DNA of 64,000 bases from Bdellovibrionota bacterium. Lineage in GTDB: Bacteria > Bdellovibrionota_C > UBA2361 > JBGSMV01. Below the pieces are notes generated by a model, which saw nothing but the letters and a program-made list of their open reading frames with translations, searched no databases and was not told the origin of the DNA. Made by a program: the position numbers and the translations under genes. Below are positions 1-63,994 of this stretch, piece after piece (position 1 is the first letter of the stretch; each line of letters begins with the position of its first letter). The stretch covers positions 24,471 through 88,470 of the forward strand of contig JBGSMV010000043.1 of the NCBI GenBank assembly GCA_041739995.1, read 5' to 3'.

Positions 1-914
1 CTTCCTCGATGTTCTTCTACTGTCTTGTCCTTCGCTCGAGTAGACCAGCGTCTAAATGAAAGTTTGTGGTCCTGCAAACTCCGCGCAAAATACTCGAACT
101 TCTCCTCGTGACGAGGGGCAACTACGAACCCAACTCTTCCCGGGTACTGCGCTACGCACCGGGCCATCTCAGGAAACCACTCTTCCTCCTCTCCACAACG
201 CAAACTTCCGAGCACCACAATCGGACGATTATCAGGAAACAACTCGGCGCGCCGCTGCGCTCGTTGCGCGTCGCTAAGTAAGCTCCCGCCAGAGTCGTAC
301 TTGGTATTCCCGGTCGTCACTGCACGCTCTGGCCTCACCCCTAGGCCTAACAGTCTCTCGCGCGCCTCCTCGGACTGGATGCACACCACTTCAAGCTGCT
401 TAAGCCCCTCTCTAACAATATCCCCAAGGATCGTGTATCTGCGTGCGGAACGCGCGGACATCCGCCCGTTAACCAATCCCATAGGCACCGCGCGGCGATG
501 CAAGCAGGAAATGAGTTCCGGCCACAGCTCGGTCTCACTAAAGACAAAACCCACCGGGGTTCGATTTCCAATTGCCTTCGAGATCCAATAGGAATGATCA
601 AAGGGAAGCAATCTTAAGTGTAGCCAAGCTTTATCGTCTAAGCGCGTCGAAGCTTGCTCAAGTCCTGTAATAGAAACGGCCGTCACCAAGATCTCCATCT
701 CAGGGCAGCGCTCTCGCAACGCGAGAATCAGAGGAACTATCCCATTAATCTCTCCGACCGAAGCGCCGTGAAACCAAAAAAAGCGTTTTGGAAGTTCGCC
801 CCAAAAGCCACACCGCTCCATGAATCTCGATCTACCGCGACGCGATAGTAGAAAAGCTGGAAGCGCGGCGAACGGCGTCAAAAGCATGACTAAGCGATAA
901 AGAAATCGAATCAA
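1..914 (-). CDS. waaA: 3-deoxy-D-manno-octulosonic acid (Kdo) transferase, 3' end runs off the window
   Basis: Not in the ORF track because there is no stop in the window. Manual translation from TTG at 914 (overlapping the upstream TGA) gives MIRFLYRLV...WFHGASVGE...LPFD...SETELWPE...VNGRMS...TGNTKYD...VAPRH, all WaaA/KdtA motifs; follows msbA and DUF374. Confidence 0.93.
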   Translation of the reverse strand, partial: MIRFLYRLVMLLTPFAALPAFLLSRRGRSRFMERCGFWGELPKRFFWFHGASVGEINGIVPLILALRERCPEMEILVTAVSITGLEQASTRLDDKAWLHLRLLPFDHSYWISKAIGNRTPVGFVFSETELWPELISCLHRRAVPMGLVNGRMSARSARRYTILGDIVREGLKQLEVVCIQSEEARERLLGLGVRPERAVTTGNTKYDSGGSLLSDAQRAQRRAELFPDNRPIVVLGSLRCGEEEEWFPEMARCVAQYPGRVGFVVAPRHEEKFEYFARSLQDHKLSFRRWSTRAKDKTVEEHRG

Positions 915-23773: not shown

Positions 23774-25840
23774 GTGAATGCAAAACCCCTCACCACTGCT
23801 TCAGGCGACACGTCGGCCATGAATGGAGCTGCTCCTCGCACCCTGATTAACTCACTCGACCTCCCCAAAGGGCTCCGTAAACTCTCCATAGCGCAACTTG
23901 AGCAGGTCAGCCAAGAACTACGGGACGAACTAATCGACTGCATTTCAAACGCCGGTGGACATTTCGCCTCTAGTCTCGGCACCACAGAACTTTCCGTAGT
24001 CCTTCACCACCTTTTCGAGACTCCTAAAGATCGTCTTATCTGGGACGTCGGACATCAGGGCTATATCCATAAGATGCTGACCGGCCGTCGCTCTCGGCTT
24101 AGCTCCATTCGAAAGCGTGGTGGAATTTCTGGATTCCTGAAACGTTCGGAATCCGAGTTCGACGTGTTTGGTGCCGGGCATGCCGGAACCAGCATCTCCG
24201 CAGCCGTTGGCATTAGCGCAGCTCTGCACGAACAAAAATCCGATGCATATACAGTTTCAGTTATTGGCGACGGATCCATGACTGCCGGTATGGCATTCGA
24301 GGCTCTGAATCATGCCGGGTCTCTCGGACTGAAACGATTTATCGTGGTTCTCAACGACAACGAAATGTCGATTTCACCCAATGTCGGCGCGCTTAGCTGG
24401 TTGTTTTCTACTGCGGTTACGTCGAAGACTTCGACCTTACTTCGCTCTCGCTTCAAGGATTTATTCAAGCAGGGCTACGTCCCGGAAGTTCTTTACAAGG
24501 CGATCGATCGCGCCGAAGAAGTTACCCAAGGGTTTTTCTCCAGTGCGTCGATGTTATTCGAAGCTTTTGGTTTTCGTTACATTGGTCCCGTTGATGGGCA
24601 CAACGTGTCAGATCTTGTCACCGCGCTTGCTCGCGCAAAGGACCAGGACGTTCCTGTGCTGGTCCATGCCTATACCACCAAAGGCAAGGGTTACGAGCCC
24701 GCAGAACAAGACCCCATTACCTGGCACGGAGTGTCTCCTTTTGATCGCTCACGCGGTGAGTTCCACAGACCCTCCGCTCCTCCGGTAAAAAAAATCCCCT
24801 CCTACACCCAAGTCTTCTCGGACACGCTTATCTCAATCGCCAAGGAACGATCCAATGTCGTTGCCATCACTGCGGCCATGGCGGGCGGCACTGGGCTTGA
24901 TAAATTTCAAAAGGAACTTCCTCAACAGTTCTATGACGTCGGTATCTGCGAACAACACGCGGTAACTTTTGCGGCTGGGCTTGCATGTGAAGGACAGCGC
25001 CCCGTCTGCGCTATCTATTCAACCTTTCTGCAACGCGGCTACGATCAAGTAGTCCATGACGTGTGCATTCAAAGTCTGCCGGTGGTGTTTGCCATGGATC
25101 GTGGTGGTGTCGTAGGAAATGACGGAGAGACGCATCAGGGCGTATTCGATATTGCTTTCCTCAGAACACTTCCCCACATCGTCTTAATGTCACCAAAAGA
25201 TGAAAATGAGTTGCGACACATGCTCCACACCGCAACCTTGACTGATGGACCTGTTGGGCTGCGCTACCCTCGCGGTAATGGCTGTGGTGTGGCGCTTGAT
25301 GAAACATTACAAAAACTTCCGATAGGAAAAGCAGAAGTCATGTCGCGCGGGTCTGAGGTGCTCTTTTTGTGCTATGGCCCACTTACCTATCGCGGTCTTG
25401 AAGCCGCTGCGCGCCTTCATGAAGAATACGGAATTTCAGCAACCGTAATAAATGCGCGCTTCGCAAAGCCGTTGGACGAGGAGCTCTTTTCAGAAGAGAT
25501 TCCTCGGCATCGACTTGTTTGCACCCTGGAAGATCATGCGATTCAAGGCGGATTCGGGAGCGCGGTGTTAGAATTCGCGAACGACGCTCACCTGATACTT
25601 GATCAGCCAATCTTGCGATTTGGCGTGCGAGACGCTTACGTCACGCATGCCAGCCAAGATGAGCAGCACACAATGAATGGCTACGACTGCGACACGATCG
25701 TACGTCTTGTAGGGCAAGCTCTCGGAGCTACTGGAAGAGCTTCGGGTCCACTTTCAATCGCGGAAACCTCTTCCTCCGACAAACGCGAGAATTTGGAACA
25801 CGCCCACCGGGACTCTCCGCCGCTTGCTAAAGCAGTTTAG
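23774..25840 (+). CDS. dxs: 1-deoxy-D-xylulose-5-phosphate synthase
   Basis: GGHFASSLG, WDVGHQGY, GDGSMTAGMAFEALN, DVGICEQH, IYSTFLQR, RYPRG. Confidence 0.97.
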   Translation: MNAKPLTTASGDTSAMNGAAPRTLINSLDLPKGLRKLSIAQLEQVSQELRDELIDCISNAGGHFASSLGTTELSVVLHHLFETPKDRLIWDVGHQGYIHKMLTGRRSRLSSIRKRGGISGFLKRSESEFDVFGAGHAGTSISAAVGISAALHEQKSDAYTVSVIGDGSMTAGMAFEALNHAGSLGLKRFIVVLNDNEMSISPNVGALSWLFSTAVTSKTSTLLRSRFKDLFKQGYVPEVLYKAIDRAEEVTQGFFSSASMLFEAFGFRYIGPVDGHNVSDLVTALARAKDQDVPVLVHAYTTKGKGYEPAEQDPITWHGVSPFDRSRGEFHRPSAPPVKKIPSYTQVFSDTLISIAKERSNVVAITAAMAGGTGLDKFQKELPQQFYDVGICEQHAVTFAAGLACEGQRPVCAIYSTFLQRGYDQVVHDVCIQSLPVVFAMDRGGVVGNDGETHQGVFDIAFLRTLPHIVLMSPKDENELRHMLHTATLTDGPVGLRYPRGNGCGVALDETLQKLPIGKAEVMSRGSEVLFLCYGPLTYRGLEAAARLHEEYGISATVINARFAKPLDEELFSEEIPRHRLVCTLEDHAIQGGFGSAVLEFANDAHLILDQPILRFGVRDAYVTHASQDEQHTMNGYDCDTIVRLVGQALGATGRASGPLSIAETSSSDKRENLEHAHRDSPPLAKAV

Positions 25841-58800: not shown

Positions 58801-61152
58801 TTGAGTTCACCAGAGCGGTCTAGACTTTCGCCTATGCGCTTTCTGCTGGTCTTCTCAGGTTTCTGTGTCTGTGTCATTGGCGGGCTGCTTGCGGTCGGGT
58901 TCTATATTGTCGACGGACAGGTCACCGCAAGGCTTGCCTCCTCAATGGAGACCAACGTCTCCGCAATCTATTCGGATATCACTCGCGTGGATCCGCTCAC
59001 GCCGTTGGAAAGAGTTGAGACTCAGCTACTTAAAAGACGTTACCGCAAGGTAGACCAGGACCCAAACACTCCTGGAGAGTTTTATCTCACCGCACGATCT
59101 CTGCAAGTATACACCCGAGAGTTTTCGGCTCCCGATGGCCGCTCAATCCCCGCACAAAAGGTTATTTGGGGAGCGCAGAAAGACAGGCGTCCTTTTGCTC
59201 TCGAGCCACAAGCCATTTCAGTTCTCGGCGAGAGTACGAGGTCTTCTAAAAACCGTTCGCTCTCAGCGTTTCCCAATCATCTAGTGCAGGCCATCGTCGC
59301 TATCGAGGACGAGCGCTTCCGAAAGCACATCGGCCTCGACTTTGAAGGAATTCTGAGAGCTGCACTCACCAACCTTCAGGCCGGGAGAGTGGTACAGGGG
59401 GGAAGTACTATTACCCAGCAACTCGCTAAGAACTTGCTCTTTACCAGAGAACGTAGCTTCAAGCGGAAAATTCTTGAGGCACTTGCCGCGCTCAGTCTCG
59501 AAAGACACCTCTCGAAAGCAGAGATTTTACAAATGTACTTAAACGAAGTTTACCTCGGGCAAGAGGGAGCTGTGGCACTCCATGGAGTTGAATCAGCAGC
59601 TTCTGCGTTTCTTGGCAAAACCGTTGAACAACTCACCCTGCCTGAATCCGCACTGTTAGCAGGAATGATTCAAGCTCCGTCCCTTTACTCTCCGCGTCGG
59701 CACCCAGAGCGCGCCAAGGCGCGCCGCGCAGTGGTCTTAAAGAAGATGCGCGAAAGAGGCTACATCACCGAGAAGCAATTGCGACTCGCACTCAACTCTC
59801 CGTTGAACATCATCAAGGAGCGCTTCCACCAACGAAGAGCTCCGCACTTTGTTACTGAGGTTTCTAATTCCCTAGTTGGGCTATTTGGCGAGGGATCATT
59901 TCAAGGGGCTGGAATTAAGGTCTTCACTGGCCTCGATATGGATCTTCAGCAATGCGCCGAGGAGGCGGTCAGCAGCTCCATCGAGACACTTGAAGCCACC
60001 CATAAAAAACTCGTTCGTGGCAAAAAATCGCTAGAGGTTGGGCTTGTCGCACTCGAACCATTTAGTGGGAAAGTGCGCGCGTGGGTGGGGGGTCGCGATT
60101 ATGCAAGCAATCAATTCGACCACGTGGCCCAAGCCGAGCGACAGATTGGCTCCACTATCAAGCCTTTTCTCTACCTGACAGCCCTTGATGGCTCTCTGAA
60201 TTCGTATCGAGTCGCAACCCCTATTAGCATTTTGACCGACGAACCAGTGAAAATTGATTTAGTTTCGAGCAAGGCTTGGGCGCCAGAGAACTACGATCAC
60301 GAGTTTCGTGGCGATGTAACACTGAGATACGCGCTTGAGCGTTCGCTTAATATCCCCGCAGTTCAGATTCTTACACGAGTTGGAATCCCCTCGTTCGTTC
60401 AAACCCTGGAGCGTTTTCGTCTTGGCTCTCACATTCCAGAGGTTCACTCTCTCGCCCTTGGAGCACTAGACACTTCCCTACTCAATTTAACCGCATCATT
60501 TGGTGCACTCGCCAACGGAGGCGTGTATGTCGGACCACGAGCCTTCGTGTCGGTGCTCGACCGAGACCTAAATCGAATTGGAACAAGCGACATTGTTGAG
60601 GAGCGCGTTGCCAACGAAGCTCCGGTGTTCGTTCTCACTGATATACTTCGTGGAGTAGTCGACCGTGGCACAGGTACGAGCATTCGCGCATCCGGTTATA
60701 CCGGGGTGGTAGCTGGAAAAACTGGCACCTCGAACGAGACTCGCGATCTGTGGTTTGTTGGATTTAGTCCGGATCTCGTCACGGGAGTGTGGGTTGGATA
60801 CGACGACAATGCCAAGGTGGGCCTAACCGGGGGTACTGGTGCTGCCCCGATCTGGGCCGAGTTCATGAAATGCGCCTCCACCTTCGGTACCCCGAGTTCC
60901 TTTATCGCACCCACAGGAGTAGTCGCTGCTGATATCGACATTAGTTCTGGATTACGCGTCAATAAGGACTGCCCTGGCGCTCAGACCACCCGCGAAATAT
61001 TCGTGGCTGGAACCGAGCCTCGCACTCGTTGTGAGATTGAATCAGCGAAAAGTAAAGAAGGTCCTGAATCCAGTGAACATCCACGCGAGGAAGAGGGTTC
61101 CGAGGAGGAAGAGCCACGCAGATCCTTCTTCGAAAGAATTTTTGGCTTGTAG
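58801..61152 (+). CDS. mrcB: Class A penicillin-binding protein (PBP1b-like)
   Basis: UB2H-like region, EDERF, GGSTITQQ, RK..E, YLNE; STIK, SLN, KTG motifs. Confidence 0.85.
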   Translation: MSSPERSRLSPMRFLLVFSGFCVCVIGGLLAVGFYIVDGQVTARLASSMETNVSAIYSDITRVDPLTPLERVETQLLKRRYRKVDQDPNTPGEFYLTARSLQVYTREFSAPDGRSIPAQKVIWGAQKDRRPFALEPQAISVLGESTRSSKNRSLSAFPNHLVQAIVAIEDERFRKHIGLDFEGILRAALTNLQAGRVVQGGSTITQQLAKNLLFTRERSFKRKILEALAALSLERHLSKAEILQMYLNEVYLGQEGAVALHGVESAASAFLGKTVEQLTLPESALLAGMIQAPSLYSPRRHPERAKARRAVVLKKMRERGYITEKQLRLALNSPLNIIKERFHQRRAPHFVTEVSNSLVGLFGEGSFQGAGIKVFTGLDMDLQQCAEEAVSSSIETLEATHKKLVRGKKSLEVGLVALEPFSGKVRAWVGGRDYASNQFDHVAQAERQIGSTIKPFLYLTALDGSLNSYRVATPISILTDEPVKIDLVSSKAWAPENYDHEFRGDVTLRYALERSLNIPAVQILTRVGIPSFVQTLERFRLGSHIPEVHSLALGALDTSLLNLTASFGALANGGVYVGPRAFVSVLDRDLNRIGTSDIVEERVANEAPVFVLTDILRGVVDRGTGTSIRASGYTGVVAGKTGTSNETRDLWFVGFSPDLVTGVWVGYDDNAKVGLTGGTGAAPIWAEFMKCASTFGTPSSFIAPTGVVAADIDISSGLRVNKDCPGAQTTREIFVAGTEPRTRCEIESAKSKEGPESSEHPREEEGSEEEEPRRSFFERIFGL

Positions 61153-61261
61153 CACCTACCTATGTAGATCCTTCAGCGCCTCTATTGGCGTTAGCTTCCA
61201 TAATCGTGAGACTCTGACGATCAGAATGGCCTATAGGTTTAAATAAAAAGCATCGAAAGAT

Positions 61262-62242
61262 ATGCTCCTTCCCATACGCGACCCTGAATTTTGGATTCGT
61301 CGATGTCTTGCTCTCGCCGCTAAAGGAGCAGGAACGGTCGGCGCTGGTGTAATGGTCGGTAGTGTTCTCGTTCGTGATAACTGCGAGATAGCATGCGGCA
61401 TTCACCATGCCTTTGGTGCTGCCCACGCAGAAAGAGACCTACTTCAGTCATTCAGTCACCAAATACAACCTACTGACACTCTCGTTATCAATCTCGAGCC
61501 TTGCGCGCCACACCCGACCAAAAAAACTCCGCCCTGTACGGAAATTATTATCGAGCGCGGAATTCGAAATGTCGTCTTTGGGATGATTGACCCTGACCCG
61601 CGCGTTGCTGGTCGGGGGCTTACGCTACTTAAAGAAAATGGCGTGTCCGTTTTCGGGCCATTCTTAGAAGAATCTGCTAAGGATTTCAATCGAGGTTTTA
61701 TATGCCTACGGTTACATCAACGACCGTGGCTATCTTTGGTTTCCTCACCCGAGAATCTGACTGCCGTCCCAGACTGTTCTGCCTGGCAGGTGAAAGGACG
61801 CTCTCACCTCTTCGCCTCAGTATTGATACACGAGGATGAGCTTCAATCCATCGCGTCAACCCTGAGTTCCCTGGCGCCCAATGACTCAAAACTGTCTTCC
61901 CAGCTTCTCATTGTGATCGATTCCGGTTCCTGTTTTGGAATGCCTCAATTCAAAGAAATATGTGAGAAGTTCCAAGTAACTCTTCTTGTTTCTGCTTCGT
62001 CCAAGAAAAGCAGTCTCATCACCAAGGTTGAAGAGTTTTCTCGGGGCTGCTCGGCTCAATCTATGCGCGTACTCAAGGAGCCCCCCCCGGCAGGTATTCA
62101 GTTCCTCGAAGCTTTGGGTCGTCCGGTCCTGCGCTCAGCTCACGGAACTCCCTTTTCGGGTGTTGCTTCCGTCATCTTGAGAGAGTCGTCTCCCCTTGTG
62201 GCTACACTCGGAAAGTCTTGTATCGATGAGCACTTGAATTAA
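61262..62242 (+). CDS. ribD: RibD-like deaminase with divergent reductase domain
   Basis: HAE, LEPC...TPPC, DPDPRVAG.G; C-terminal half lacks recognisable reductase motifs. Confidence 0.75.
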   Translation: MLLPIRDPEFWIRRCLALAAKGAGTVGAGVMVGSVLVRDNCEIACGIHHAFGAAHAERDLLQSFSHQIQPTDTLVINLEPCAPHPTKKTPPCTEIIIERGIRNVVFGMIDPDPRVAGRGLTLLKENGVSVFGPFLEESAKDFNRGFICLRLHQRPWLSLVSSPENLTAVPDCSAWQVKGRSHLFASVLIHEDELQSIASTLSSLAPNDSKLSSQLLIVIDSGSCFGMPQFKEICEKFQVTLLVSASSKKSSLITKVEEFSRGCSAQSMRVLKEPPPAGIQFLEALGRPVLRSAHGTPFSGVASVILRESSPLVATLGKSCIDEHLN

Positions 62243-62343
62243 TGACCTCGCTTTGAGTGAAATACCTATTTTCGCTCCTCAAAACCACAATATTTTCAAT
62301 AATCTAACGGCATTAGAGGCAGAATCCCGGACTTTCCGGATAT

Positions 62344-62616
62344 GTGGCTATGAAGAGAACTGTGGTCAATGGTCGGCACATCATCGCCGCGGGAGAAGTC
62401 GGAGAGTTCACCGTCTGTCCTGAATCGTGGCGACTTCGAATGATTGCGGCGGTGAAGCGCGAACGCTCGGAGAATAAGAGGGAAGGCATCCGACTACACG
62501 CGCAGTGGGCAAAGAATTACGACGAATCACACTCGTTGAATCGACTAGTCCGAATTCTTCTACTTTCACTTTTACTTGCTGGAATGCTCTACGCCCAGCT
62601 CTCGTTGGGAACTTAG
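62344..62616 (+). CDS. N-terminal half of a split Cas4-like nuclease with C-terminal TM helix
   Basis: IAAGEVGEFTVCPESWRL (first Fe-S Cys), EGIRLH (GxxxH), then ILLLSLLLAGMLY. Start may be ATG 62350. Confidence 0.75.
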   Translation: MAMKRTVVNGRHIIAAGEVGEFTVCPESWRLRMIAAVKRERSENKREGIRLHAQWAKNYDESHSLNRLVRILLLSLLLAGMLYAQLSLGT

Positions 62617-62627
62617 AGAAATCTGTC

Positions 62628-63284
62628 ATGCTGGAATCCATCATCAACTATTTTGCGAATACCTGGCATCAAGCGCTGAACGCTGACTATGGCATCATGC
62701 TCTTTTGCATTATTGGCATAGCGACCATGATCGTTCTCGACGCGGTAACTCTCGCCATCTCGAAAGCTCGGCATCAAACTGGATTAGATCCTCGGGCGCG
62801 TGGCATAAGTGTCGACGGAAGTTCTGCGCTCCCTGGCAAAAGCTACCTATCAGAGCGACAAGCACTTGCAGGTCGGCCAGATGCGGTGATCTATGAGGGT
62901 GGCTTTATAATTCCTGTTGAGCGCAAACCGTTGGCCCGCAAAGTACGCGATCGCTATGTCGCGCAGTTGCTCATTTACATGCGACTGATTGAAGAGTTTG
63001 AAGGCAAAAAACCTCCATACGGTTATTTGATTCTCGGTCAGAATTGTCGAAAGGTTCGCATTGAGAATACGCCGGAGCGCCAAGCCTGGGTGGATTCCAT
63101 GCTGAACGAGATGCGCGCCATTCTCGGTGGCATGCCTGCGAAGGCCACTCCCCATGAGAGCAAGTGTCGAAAATGCGATGTGCGCGCCCACTGCGCATTC
63201 GCCGGAGAAGCCGTCGCCGGGCAAAAAATTTTGGGTACCGCAACCAGGTCTTCTGCACAGCTCAAACAGAGAGCCACTTCGTAG
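62628..63284 (+). CDS. C-terminal half of a Cas4-like PD-(D/E)xK nuclease with N-terminal TM helix
   Basis: TM helix, LAGRPD, PVERK, QLLIY, PPYGYL, CRKCDVRAHC. Confidence 0.85.
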   Translation: MLESIINYFANTWHQALNADYGIMLFCIIGIATMIVLDAVTLAISKARHQTGLDPRARGISVDGSSALPGKSYLSERQALAGRPDAVIYEGGFIIPVERKPLARKVRDRYVAQLLIYMRLIEEFEGKKPPYGYLILGQNCRKVRIENTPERQAWVDSMLNEMRAILGGMPAKATPHESKCRKCDVRAHCAFAGEAVAGQKILGTATRSSAQLKQRATS

Positions 63285-63409
63285 ATGCACGTTACAAGAT
63301 AGTGATCCTAAGGAACTCCTCGTCACTCAGATACCTCGCGCACTGGTTTGTAGGCCCGGCGATGCTCTGAGGCCGAGTTGGTTCGAGAGACCTTAGAAAC
63401 TCTCAGTGC

Positions 63410-63859
63410 TTAGGCACTCTTGAAGACTGCAGTGTGTGCTATGCGATCATGAAGCGCCTGTTTTAACTGGCCGAGCACAAAAAAGCAGCCAATGAACACC
63501 ACTACACTTGCGAGGGTTCCAAGTACTGAAAGAACGTTCATGGCCGTTAACGCCACGCCTAGTGTCAGTATCTGACCTGATGATTTGATCGCCTAACGTG
63601 TCGCCAACGTCTACGTAGTTGCGTCGCTACCATCCTCATTACGAATTTTAAGTCCCAAAATCAGCTTACCTGGAGTGGCTGCTAAGAAGACCTCCGTCGA
63701 CGTATAAGCGAGGGGGATAAGAGCTAATATCAAGGCGACTATCGTAGCACTTAGCGCACCAGTCGCCTGAGCAACATCGGTCTGTGCAACCGCCAGGGAA
63801 TCGCCTCCTAAAATGGCCAGCGCGCTGAATCCAAATATCATGGCAAGCCCGAACCGCTT
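63410..63859 (-). pseudogene. RDD family membrane protein, 5'-truncated, two in-frame TAG stops
   Basis: ...EVFLAATPGKLILGLKI...DATT*TLATR*AIK...KQALHDRIAHTAV; TAGs at 63611-63613 and 63593-63595; final TAA at 63410-63412. Confidence 0.8.
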
Positions 63860-63994
63860 CTGTACCGGGGCTACTCTCCCTAGCGAGGTAGGCAGCGCTC
63901 CGCCCGACTGCACACCCGAAGAGTCCCCCCCCCTGTACCGGGGCTACTCCCCCGACCCCCCAATCACTCTCATCCCTCCCTGTACCGGGGCTAC
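63860..63994 (+). repeat. Three direct copies of CTGTACCGGGGCTAC with irregular spacers; may continue past the window edge
   Basis: Copies start at 63860, 63933 and 63980. Confidence 0.85.

Follow-up and report, generated by a model that had tools for sequence, protein, structure and literature searches.

The window analysed here is a stretch of 64,000 nucleotides (nt) from the genome of a Bdellovibrionota bacterium (GenBank assembly GCA_041739995.1, contig JBGSMV010000043.1, forward-strand positions 24,471 to 88,470), and the subject of this work is a pair of adjacent plus-strand genes within it, termed A and B, that between them carry the sequence motifs of a Cas4-family nuclease. Open reading frame (ORF) A (62350..62616) encodes 88 amino acids (aa) and would form a small subunit, consisting of the N-terminal segment of Cas4 and a C-terminal tail anchor. 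Its start was set at the ATG at 62350 from where homologues begin; reading of the sequence and the ORF list gave GTG at 62344 as an alternative start (ORF 62344..62616) and TAG at 62614-62616 as the stop codon. Separated from the stop of A by an 11-nt spacer (62617..62627), ORF B (62628..63284) begins with ATG at 62628 and encodes a candidate large subunit of 218 aa, with a short N-terminal head, one membrane helix, a PD-(D/E)xK core and three cysteines. The frame of B lies one base behind the frame of A and is open from 62505, after a stop at 62502-62504, resulting in a 112-nt overlap with the end of A (62505-62616).

Within A, Cys23 (TGT, 62416..62418) occurs in a C-P-x-x-W-x-L context and is the predicted first ligand of a 4Fe-4S cluster. 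His50, the last residue of a G..LH motif (Gly46 to His50, 62485..62499; His codon 62497-62499), is a predicted ligand of the active-site metal. A hydrophobic helix at residues 66-84 (62545..62601) is followed by four residues and would serve as the tail anchor. In B, a 21-residue head without Lys or Arg precedes the putative membrane helix at about residues 22-44 (62691..62759). The catalytic residues Asp85 and Glu98-x-Lys100 (62880..62927) are found within the sequences LAGRPD (Asp 62880-62882) and PVERK (Glu 62919-62921, Lys 62925-62927), followed by an invariant QxxxY motif, named from the RecB-family nucleases and here reading QLLIY (Gln113 to Tyr117, 62964..62978). Cys180-x2-Cys183-x5-Cys189 (63165..63194), also invariant, are the predicted cluster ligands 2 to 4. 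Every element that the initial annotation had described at the level of the ORFs was present, namely A with its Cys, G..LH and hydrophobic end, and B starting 11 nt on in another frame with its own helix and motifs.

B matched the Pfam family Cas_Cas4 (PF01930 / COG1468) with an E-value of 8.1e-08 (32.9 bits, cut-off 22.7) over profile positions 54-159 of 160, and PDDEXK_1 with 2.7e-06. As the Cas_Cas4 match begins at profile position 54, the N-terminal third of Cas4 is missing from B. Against the NCBIfam model TIGR00372 (cas4), B scored 55.4 bits (6.5e-15), under the equivalog cut-off of 65, and three relatives in which A and B are fused were also under it at 61.9, 62.7 and 64.3 bits. PADLOC matched B to Cas4 models (to 1.5e-15) and to DruK nuclease models.

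The residues predicted to build the cluster and the active site are strongly conserved on both sides of the division. Across 70 A parts, either free-standing or N-terminal to B in one chain, the Cys and the Trp and Leu that follow it were present in all 70, the Gly and the His of G..LH in 68 each, and a Trp after the motif in all 70. In B, D85, E98, K100, Q113, Y117, C180, C183 and C189 were invariant in all 17 aligned homologues and in all 34 fused forms. A further residue, Cys140, is invariant in the split clade and is replaced in several single-chain relatives (e.g. L019, L029 and L031), and is thus not a general cluster ligand. In SSO0001 the metal is held by His62, Asp99, Glu113 and Lys115, according to PMC13621843.

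To place both halves on the Cas4 fold, comparisons were made with the single-chain relatives. A profile of 34 of these matched the solved Cas4 structure 8d3l_I with a whole-sequence E-value of 3.5e-05 in two stretches, the first aligning profile positions 10-58 with Cas4 residues 8-53, including the Cys and G..LH, and the second aligning positions 174-275 with residues 102-203, covering the region of the C-terminal Cys triad. An AlphaFold 2 (AF2) model of one single-chain relative had a mean predicted local distance difference test score (pLDDT) of 74.8, falling to 51-72 over a helical hairpin. This model, which represents a fused relative and not the pair of the window itself, superposed on Cas4 7mi4_A with Z 17.1 and a root-mean-square deviation (rmsd) of 3.4 over 167 residues (model 6..276 to chain 5..201) and on Cas4 8d3l_I with Z 16.5 and rmsd 3.9 over 175 aligned residues. 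Foldseek returned Dna2 (5ean) at 2e-06 and Cas4 8d3l at 3.6e-06. About 100 residues in the middle of the model were unaligned to 7mi4_A and make up two long helices (41-84 and 103-131).

All four cysteines of a Cas4-type cluster are present and are divided between the two genes, with one predicted ligand in A (Cys23) and three in B (C180, C183 and C189). Sequence and model comparisons agree with the initial annotation that A and B are probably complementary halves of a single Fe-S nuclease of the Cas4 family, the division falling between the His motif and the PD-(D/E)xK core. On this reading neither protein would be a complete enzyme, with the His and the first Cys supplied by A and the remainder by B.

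Split and single-chain forms of the gene

Homologues of B were sought among 5.8 billion proteins, which gave 428 relatives. The best 120 of these were 192-230 aa in length, i.e. also proteins comprising the B part only, and the database entry for B itself is 218 aa. One genome per species was then scanned to give a set of 70 loci from metagenome-assembled genomes labelled Bdellovibrionota, Oligoflexia or 'Deltaproteobacteria'. An A-like sequence was located directly upstream of B on the same strand in all 70 loci. In 35 of them the two parts share a single open frame, about 275-295 aa in length (in L071 it is truncated by a contig end), and in the other 35 they are split by a TAA, TAG or TGA stop codon, with frame offsets from A to B of 0, 1 and 2 in 8, 19 and 8 loci respectively. 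The conserved A and B pairs anticipated in the initial annotation were therefore recovered in every locus, and B without an A-like neighbour was not seen in these loci. Given this recurrence in 70/70 loci and in 110/124 genomes (see below), the pairing of A and B is far above chance.

Two explanations in which the locus would yield, or once yielded, a single protein were weighed against a genuine split. A single missing base would join the two frames, as the frame of B overlaps the end of A, and the arrangement could then be a frameshift introduced in sequencing or assembly, or a pseudogene in decay, with a single ORF as the true gene. The junction (62575-62650) was nevertheless bridged in contigs of four of four public runs, all from one study and with X1 possibly the source sample, with no differences and no gap, so that the indel fusing A and B for which the junction was checked did not appear. 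One contig of run X4 (depth 3.6) carries an extra G behind 62479, inside ORF A, attributable to an error at low depth or to strain variation that would truncate A; with it, A would terminate at the stop of the B frame at 62502-62504, giving a shortened A and no fusion. The split also occurs in 35 other loci with all three offsets and differing stop codons, the catalytic and Cys residues are invariant, and the length of B lies within the range of its relatives. Because the split recurs in 35 loci, all four runs bridge the junction and the X4 indel gives no fusion, an assembly error or pseudogene is excluded for practical purposes. A programmed -1 frameshift within the 62505-62616 overlap, which would produce a single-chain protein, has in its favour the 112 nt in which both frames are open, the need for a shift of exactly -1 and the existence of single-chain relatives. 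Yet no slippery heptamer of the form X XXY YYZ was seen in the frame of A over 62540-62616, read by eye with no scan run, and the three different offsets among the 35 split relatives mean that no single recoding mechanism is conserved. Moreover, a Shine-Dalgarno (SD)-like 4-mer precedes B in 16 of the 35 split loci compared with an expectation of 0.127 for random 15-mers, which was taken as favouring independent translation of B in these relatives; recoding is accordingly considered exceedingly improbable. A promoter and terminator scan of 61100-63700 gave two promoter-like sites (2.0 on average in shuffled sequences) and three terminator-like sites (2.5 on average in shuffled sequences), none of them beside A or B.

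The history of the two forms was examined with trees of the B core. In a first tree, built from 68 rows (without L071 and with the overly short L069 and L070 removed), one branch separated the single-chain from the split sequences. Addition of 40 further loci gave a wider tree of 107 rows (L105 dropped), in which the best tree contains nine changes of state and the well-supported branches alone force at least two. The single change indicated by the 68-row tree was thus overturned by the wider sample. Holding the single-chain rows together was 130 log-likelihood units worse (approximately unbiased (AU) test, p 4.4e-06), in a test that was run after the tree had been seen and with several long branches present. 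As judged from these trees, the fused and split states are interchangeable over evolutionary time and have changed more than once. The tree is unrooted and lacks an outgroup, canonical Cas4 being about 15-20% identical in structural alignments, and hence does not give the direction of change, be it fission or re-fusion. Eight of the 35 split loci are in frame with one stop codon between the halves, such that one substitution switches the state, and the arrangement in the window is a 'hard' split, out of frame and with its 11-nt spacer.

Membrane helices and the predicted A-B complex

Averaged over 19 residues, Kyte-Doolittle hydropathy reached maxima of 1.99 at residues 66-84 of A and 2.43 at residues 22-40 of B. 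Values of at least 1.6 were obtained for 35/35 free-standing A homologues and 34/35 B homologues, and two separate segments were found at this threshold in 30/35 single-chain forms. Hydropathy therefore agrees with the initial annotation in assigning one membrane helix to each half. The suggestion that each half gained its anchor at the break did not hold, given that the same hairpin is present in the single-chain relatives (35/70 loci; 58/110 genomes). From the sequences compared, the two helices are best described as a hairpin inserted into the Cas4 fold after the His motif throughout the family, with the break located in the loop between them. Across the family Lys and Arg make up a fraction of 0.08 in the head of B versus 0.26 over the 15 residues that follow the helix. 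From this charge pattern both soluble parts are predicted to be cytoplasmic, with the tail of A and the head of B outside, which would be the only arrangement allowing the halves to share one cluster.

The complex was modelled from A (36 aligned sequences), B (17 aligned sequences) and a 4Fe-4S cluster in three runs alongside three controls. The model score was 0.78 in each of the three runs, with 0.02 for the best control; in a benchmark, the 0.78 mark was reached by 116/157 solved complexes and 2/215 mismatched pairs. The pLDDT of the partners was at least 75 and contact agreement among the runs at least 88%. The confident interface consists of A residues 3-60 with B residues 74-86, 99-117 and 155-191, in which the Cys helix and the His of A are modelled against the catalytic strands, the QxxxY helix and the Cys triad of B. 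Residues 9-30 of A touch residues 171-175, 179 and 183-189 of B. Whether the Cys of A joins those of B had been posed as a check on the heterodimer, and in the model the Cys helix of A packs on the Cys triad of B. The model thus supports binding of A to B through the soluble domain.

Distribution, CRISPR systems and gene neighbourhood

A census was taken of 124 genomes of the phylum to which the window belongs. B was detected in 110 of these (67 of the 73 of high quality) and A in exactly the same 110, with the same 14 genomes lacking both. Family f28 lacks A and B in all six of its genomes (0/6; completeness 82-96%), which looks like a true loss. On the basis of the length of the A open frame, 58 of the 110 genomes have the single-chain form, 51 the split form and one is undecided, A and B being on contig ends. 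The state was checked directly at 40 fetched loci, where both halves were identified by tblastn in 37, the other three relying on the profile match. The order of the window's own genome includes 44 split and 40 single-chain cases, the latter in families f3 and f18 and one genus of f21, and the other orders comprise 18 single-chain and seven split. The gene is mostly single copy, nearly universal and follows taxonomy. One genome of another order has a second, very divergent split copy (G022:C24:19079-19806, L091) beside a single-chain copy on contig C31, and this second copy forms the longest branch in the tree. When the A profile was searched against 1.84 billion representative proteins, 457 matched at E 0.001 or better; among the best 150 of these, 119 were at most 130 aa, 27 were at least 240 aa and four were intermediate, and 26 of the 27 long matches carry CxxCx4-6C.

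The distribution differs from that of clustered regularly interspaced short palindromic repeat (CRISPR) systems, with Cas1 found in 20/124 genomes versus 110/124 for A and B. The initial annotation had regarded the pair as a 'solo' Cas4 with no cas1, cas2 or array nearby, and indeed neither cas1 nor an array-like tandem repeat was present in the window. In the window's own genome cas1 was found on contigs C19 and C24 only. Near the start of contig C19 lies a canonical cas1-cas4 pair (C19:1041-2535, minus strand; L073/L075) with a cas1 Pfam match of 1.9e-102 and a complete cas4 (Pfam 6.1e-24, profile positions 3-159), so that a CRISPR-type Cas4 and the split membrane form coexist in this genome. 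Because Cas1 is restricted to 20 of the 124 genomes and a separate canonical cas1-cas4 pair exists in the same genome, the A and B enzyme is not part of CRISPR adaptation. The final 140 bases of the window contain three copies of a 15-base motif (63860-63994; 0 expected), with spacings of 73 and 47 bases that do not look like those of a CRISPR array. Genome-wide there are 14 copies, of which at least 10 lie no more than about 400 bases from a contig end (contigs C22, C23 at both ends, C32, C55 and C60), the distance to contig ends not being known for the copies on C42 and C78. The motif probably belongs to a repeat present in multiple copies, at which the assembly breaks.

In the window, A and B are situated between a gene with a cytidine/dCMP deaminase domain and a convergent gene for an RDD-family membrane protein. 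In the former (61262-62242, plus strand, 326 aa), which closely precedes A, residues 9-108 match a deaminase zinc-binding domain (3.7e-10), and the C-terminal ~200 residues gave no Pfam match at E 0.01 or better. The latter (63611-63913, minus strand, 100 aa) matched the RDD family with 1.7e-06. Neighbours in the relatives include a methionyl-tRNA formyltransferase-like gene (fmt) and a peptide deformylase-like gene (def), both named by reading of the sequence without a family scan, together with two lineage-specific proteins, c1 and c2. The first of these (~170 aa, with many invariant residues; L003:3069-3578) is encoded directly upstream in 61/70 loci and was considered as a required partner. 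This was rejected, as c1 is encoded on another contig in the window's genome (C77:66318-66803, minus strand), is kept where A and B are absent and is unlinked to them in other orders; with its presence in 122/124 genomes, including all six of f28, it is a lineage-wide core protein. No Pfam or PADLOC match was obtained for c1, nor any PADLOC match for A and c2. An AF2 model of c1 (pLDDT 75.4) gave no Foldseek match at E 0.001 or better and no usable match in the Atlas, and the best result of a wide VIA search (Z 6.2, rmsd 3.3, 79 aligned) was within the background range.

Interpretation, alternatives and relation to known nucleases

Taken together, the sequence features and how well they are conserved, the joint occurrence of A and B, the existence of fused relatives and the lack of a link to CRISPR make it likely that A and B constitute a two-subunit, inner-membrane-anchored nuclease of the Cas4 family. 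A would contribute the N-terminal helix that bears the first Cys of the cluster, together with the His that binds the metal, and B the Asp, Glu and Lys residues, QxxxY and the other three Cys. Packing of the soluble parts on the cytoplasmic face would then complete the Cas4 fold, giving a single 4Fe-4S cluster and a single active site, with A held by its C-terminal tail anchor and B by its N-terminal helix, the N-terminus of B lying outside. Binding of A to B, this topology, Fe-S binding and nuclease activity are each predicted. In the single-chain relatives the same helices would form a hairpin within the Cas4 fold, the gene having been cut or rejoined in the loop several times. The enzyme may perform housekeeping processing of DNA ends or flaps at the inner membrane face, either in repair or on membrane-attached or incoming DNA. 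Such a role is preferred to mobile defence because the gene is a core, vertically inherited one, and is the most speculative part of the proposal, any specific cellular role being distinctly doubtful.

Other readings of the pair differ in what they make of A and of the break. B could be a self-sufficient membrane nuclease, with A a small membrane protein of accessory or regulatory function rather than the missing part of the fold, a possibility to which the absence of a significant family match for A and the extra conserved Cys140 in B of the split clade lend something. Cys140 is however replaced in several fused relatives, and B is devoid of Cas4 profile positions 1-53, where the first Cys and the His belong, both of which A carries in invariant or nearly invariant form. 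Furthermore, in the fused relatives one chain continues from the A part into B, the model of such a chain spans the whole Cas4 fold, and A and B co-occur perfectly in the same 110 genomes, making an independent B highly improbable. The initial annotation instead envisaged a dimerisation-gated nuclease, in which the halves are kept apart and enzyme and cluster assemble only when the helices pair, as a regulated switch. One helix on each half and the retention of the split form in many lineages (51/110 genomes) would fit this arrangement. In 58/110 genomes (40 loci checked directly) and 35/70 loci, though, the halves with the same hairpin are one covalent chain. Association cannot be the conserved control step of the family when the halves are covalently joined in about half of its lineages, and the repeated interchange of fused and split forms described above is what would be expected if the two were functionally equivalent. 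The confident predicted contacts moreover lie between the soluble parts, and A and B are adjacent and probably co-expressed. Gating by helix pairing was thus not upheld and is considered quite unlikely. Defence at the point of DNA entry, also raised initially and here directed against phages or plasmids, concerns the role of the enzyme. Relatives of Cas4 occur in defence systems, the PADLOC matches of B are to Cas4 and DruK models, and a membrane tether would sit where foreign DNA enters. A mostly single-copy gene that is found in 110/124 genomes and follows taxonomy is, in contrast, unlike a mobile defence island; its neighbours are housekeeping or lineage core genes (fmt, def, c1 and the deaminase), with A, c1 and c2 devoid of PADLOC matches. 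Solo-cas4 genes are mainly vertically inherited and evolve like regular cellular genes, as stated in Hudaiberdiev et al. 2017 (PMC5704561). Defence therefore stands as an option that fits a vertically inherited core gene less well, and is unlikely.

Several observations weigh against the two-subunit, membrane-anchored Cas4-family nuclease. A alone had no significant Pfam or NCBIfam match, such that the proposed profile search placed B in Cas_Cas4 and PDDEXK_1 and left A by itself without a family, and homologues of A touched PDDEXK_1 weakly in 12/36 cases and Cas_Cas4 in 3/36. Likewise, the N-terminal stretch of the 8d3l_I match is weak when taken alone (7.2 bits). The His of G..LH is lost in the A parts of L061 and L064, a well-supported pair in the tree in which it is replaced by Met or Lys and the Cys is kept; their metal site may be altered or inactive. 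No SD-like 4-mer precedes B in the window itself. The topology was derived from hydropathy and charge counts only. The score of the complex may reflect likeness to solved single-chain Cas4 structures, and its calibration holds roughly, with the job having used its own alignments and a ligand. The membrane helices lie outside the confident interface, B47 alone being named near them, and helix-helix contact is neither supported nor excluded by the model. Finally, nothing in the neighbourhood points to a pathway.

Among known systems, CRISPR-associated Cas4 (PF01930 / TIGR00372; 8D3L, 7MI4, 4IC1 and 4R5Q) shares with A and B the fold, the D..ExK and QxxxY motifs, the division of the cysteines into one and three, and the N-terminal His. 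Cas4 is in general a single soluble polypeptide, whereas A and B are two chains with a two-helix membrane hairpin after the His motif, have no cas1, cas2 or array nearby and score under the TIGR00372 cut-off. The solo-Cas4 proteins, as described in PMC5704561, share with A and B the occurrence of a Cas4 homologue outside cas loci and vertical inheritance; in that paper the terms 'split' and 'Bdellovibrio' occur 0 times and 'membrane' once, and its supplementary trees may list members of the family. The Fe-S PD-(D/E)xK domains of AddB/AdnAB, Dna2 and Exo5 belong to the same fold class with a 4Fe-4S 'staple', and the fused-relative model superposed on Exo5 with Z 14.4 and rmsd 3.3 (158 aligned) and on AdnA with Z 13.4 and rmsd 5.1 (197 aligned). 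Between these AddB/Dna2-type proteins and Cas4, the sequence profiles favour Cas4. No helicase domain or gene adjoins A and B in the window, no systematic search for a distant helicase partner having been made. A full-text literature search, supplements aside, found no description of a transmembrane or split Cas4.

For annotation, the small gene A is easily overlooked or labelled hypothetical, and B alone would pass for a truncated Cas4. It is tentatively proposed that the family may represent an undescribed class of Cas4-family protein, namely an Fe-S nuclease integrated in the membrane and encoded by a core gene of nearly all members of a phylum-level lineage (Bdellovibrionota or Oligoflexia by its labels). 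Such a protein would couple DNA processing to the inner membrane, for example by trimming DNA taken up or anchored there, its gene having been repeatedly cut and rejoined in the hairpin loop. A membrane-tied Cas4-like enzyme in nearly all genomes of a mostly CRISPR-less lineage would point to a cellular function of the Cas4 fold apart from spacer acquisition. Single-chain and two-chain versions of one Fe-S enzyme occur naturally in this family as matched counterparts, with the split placed exactly between the helices of the hairpin, making it suited to the study of cluster and active-site assembly from two pieces anchored in the membrane. Should the tentative proposal be true, it would provide a natural test case for split membrane enzymes.

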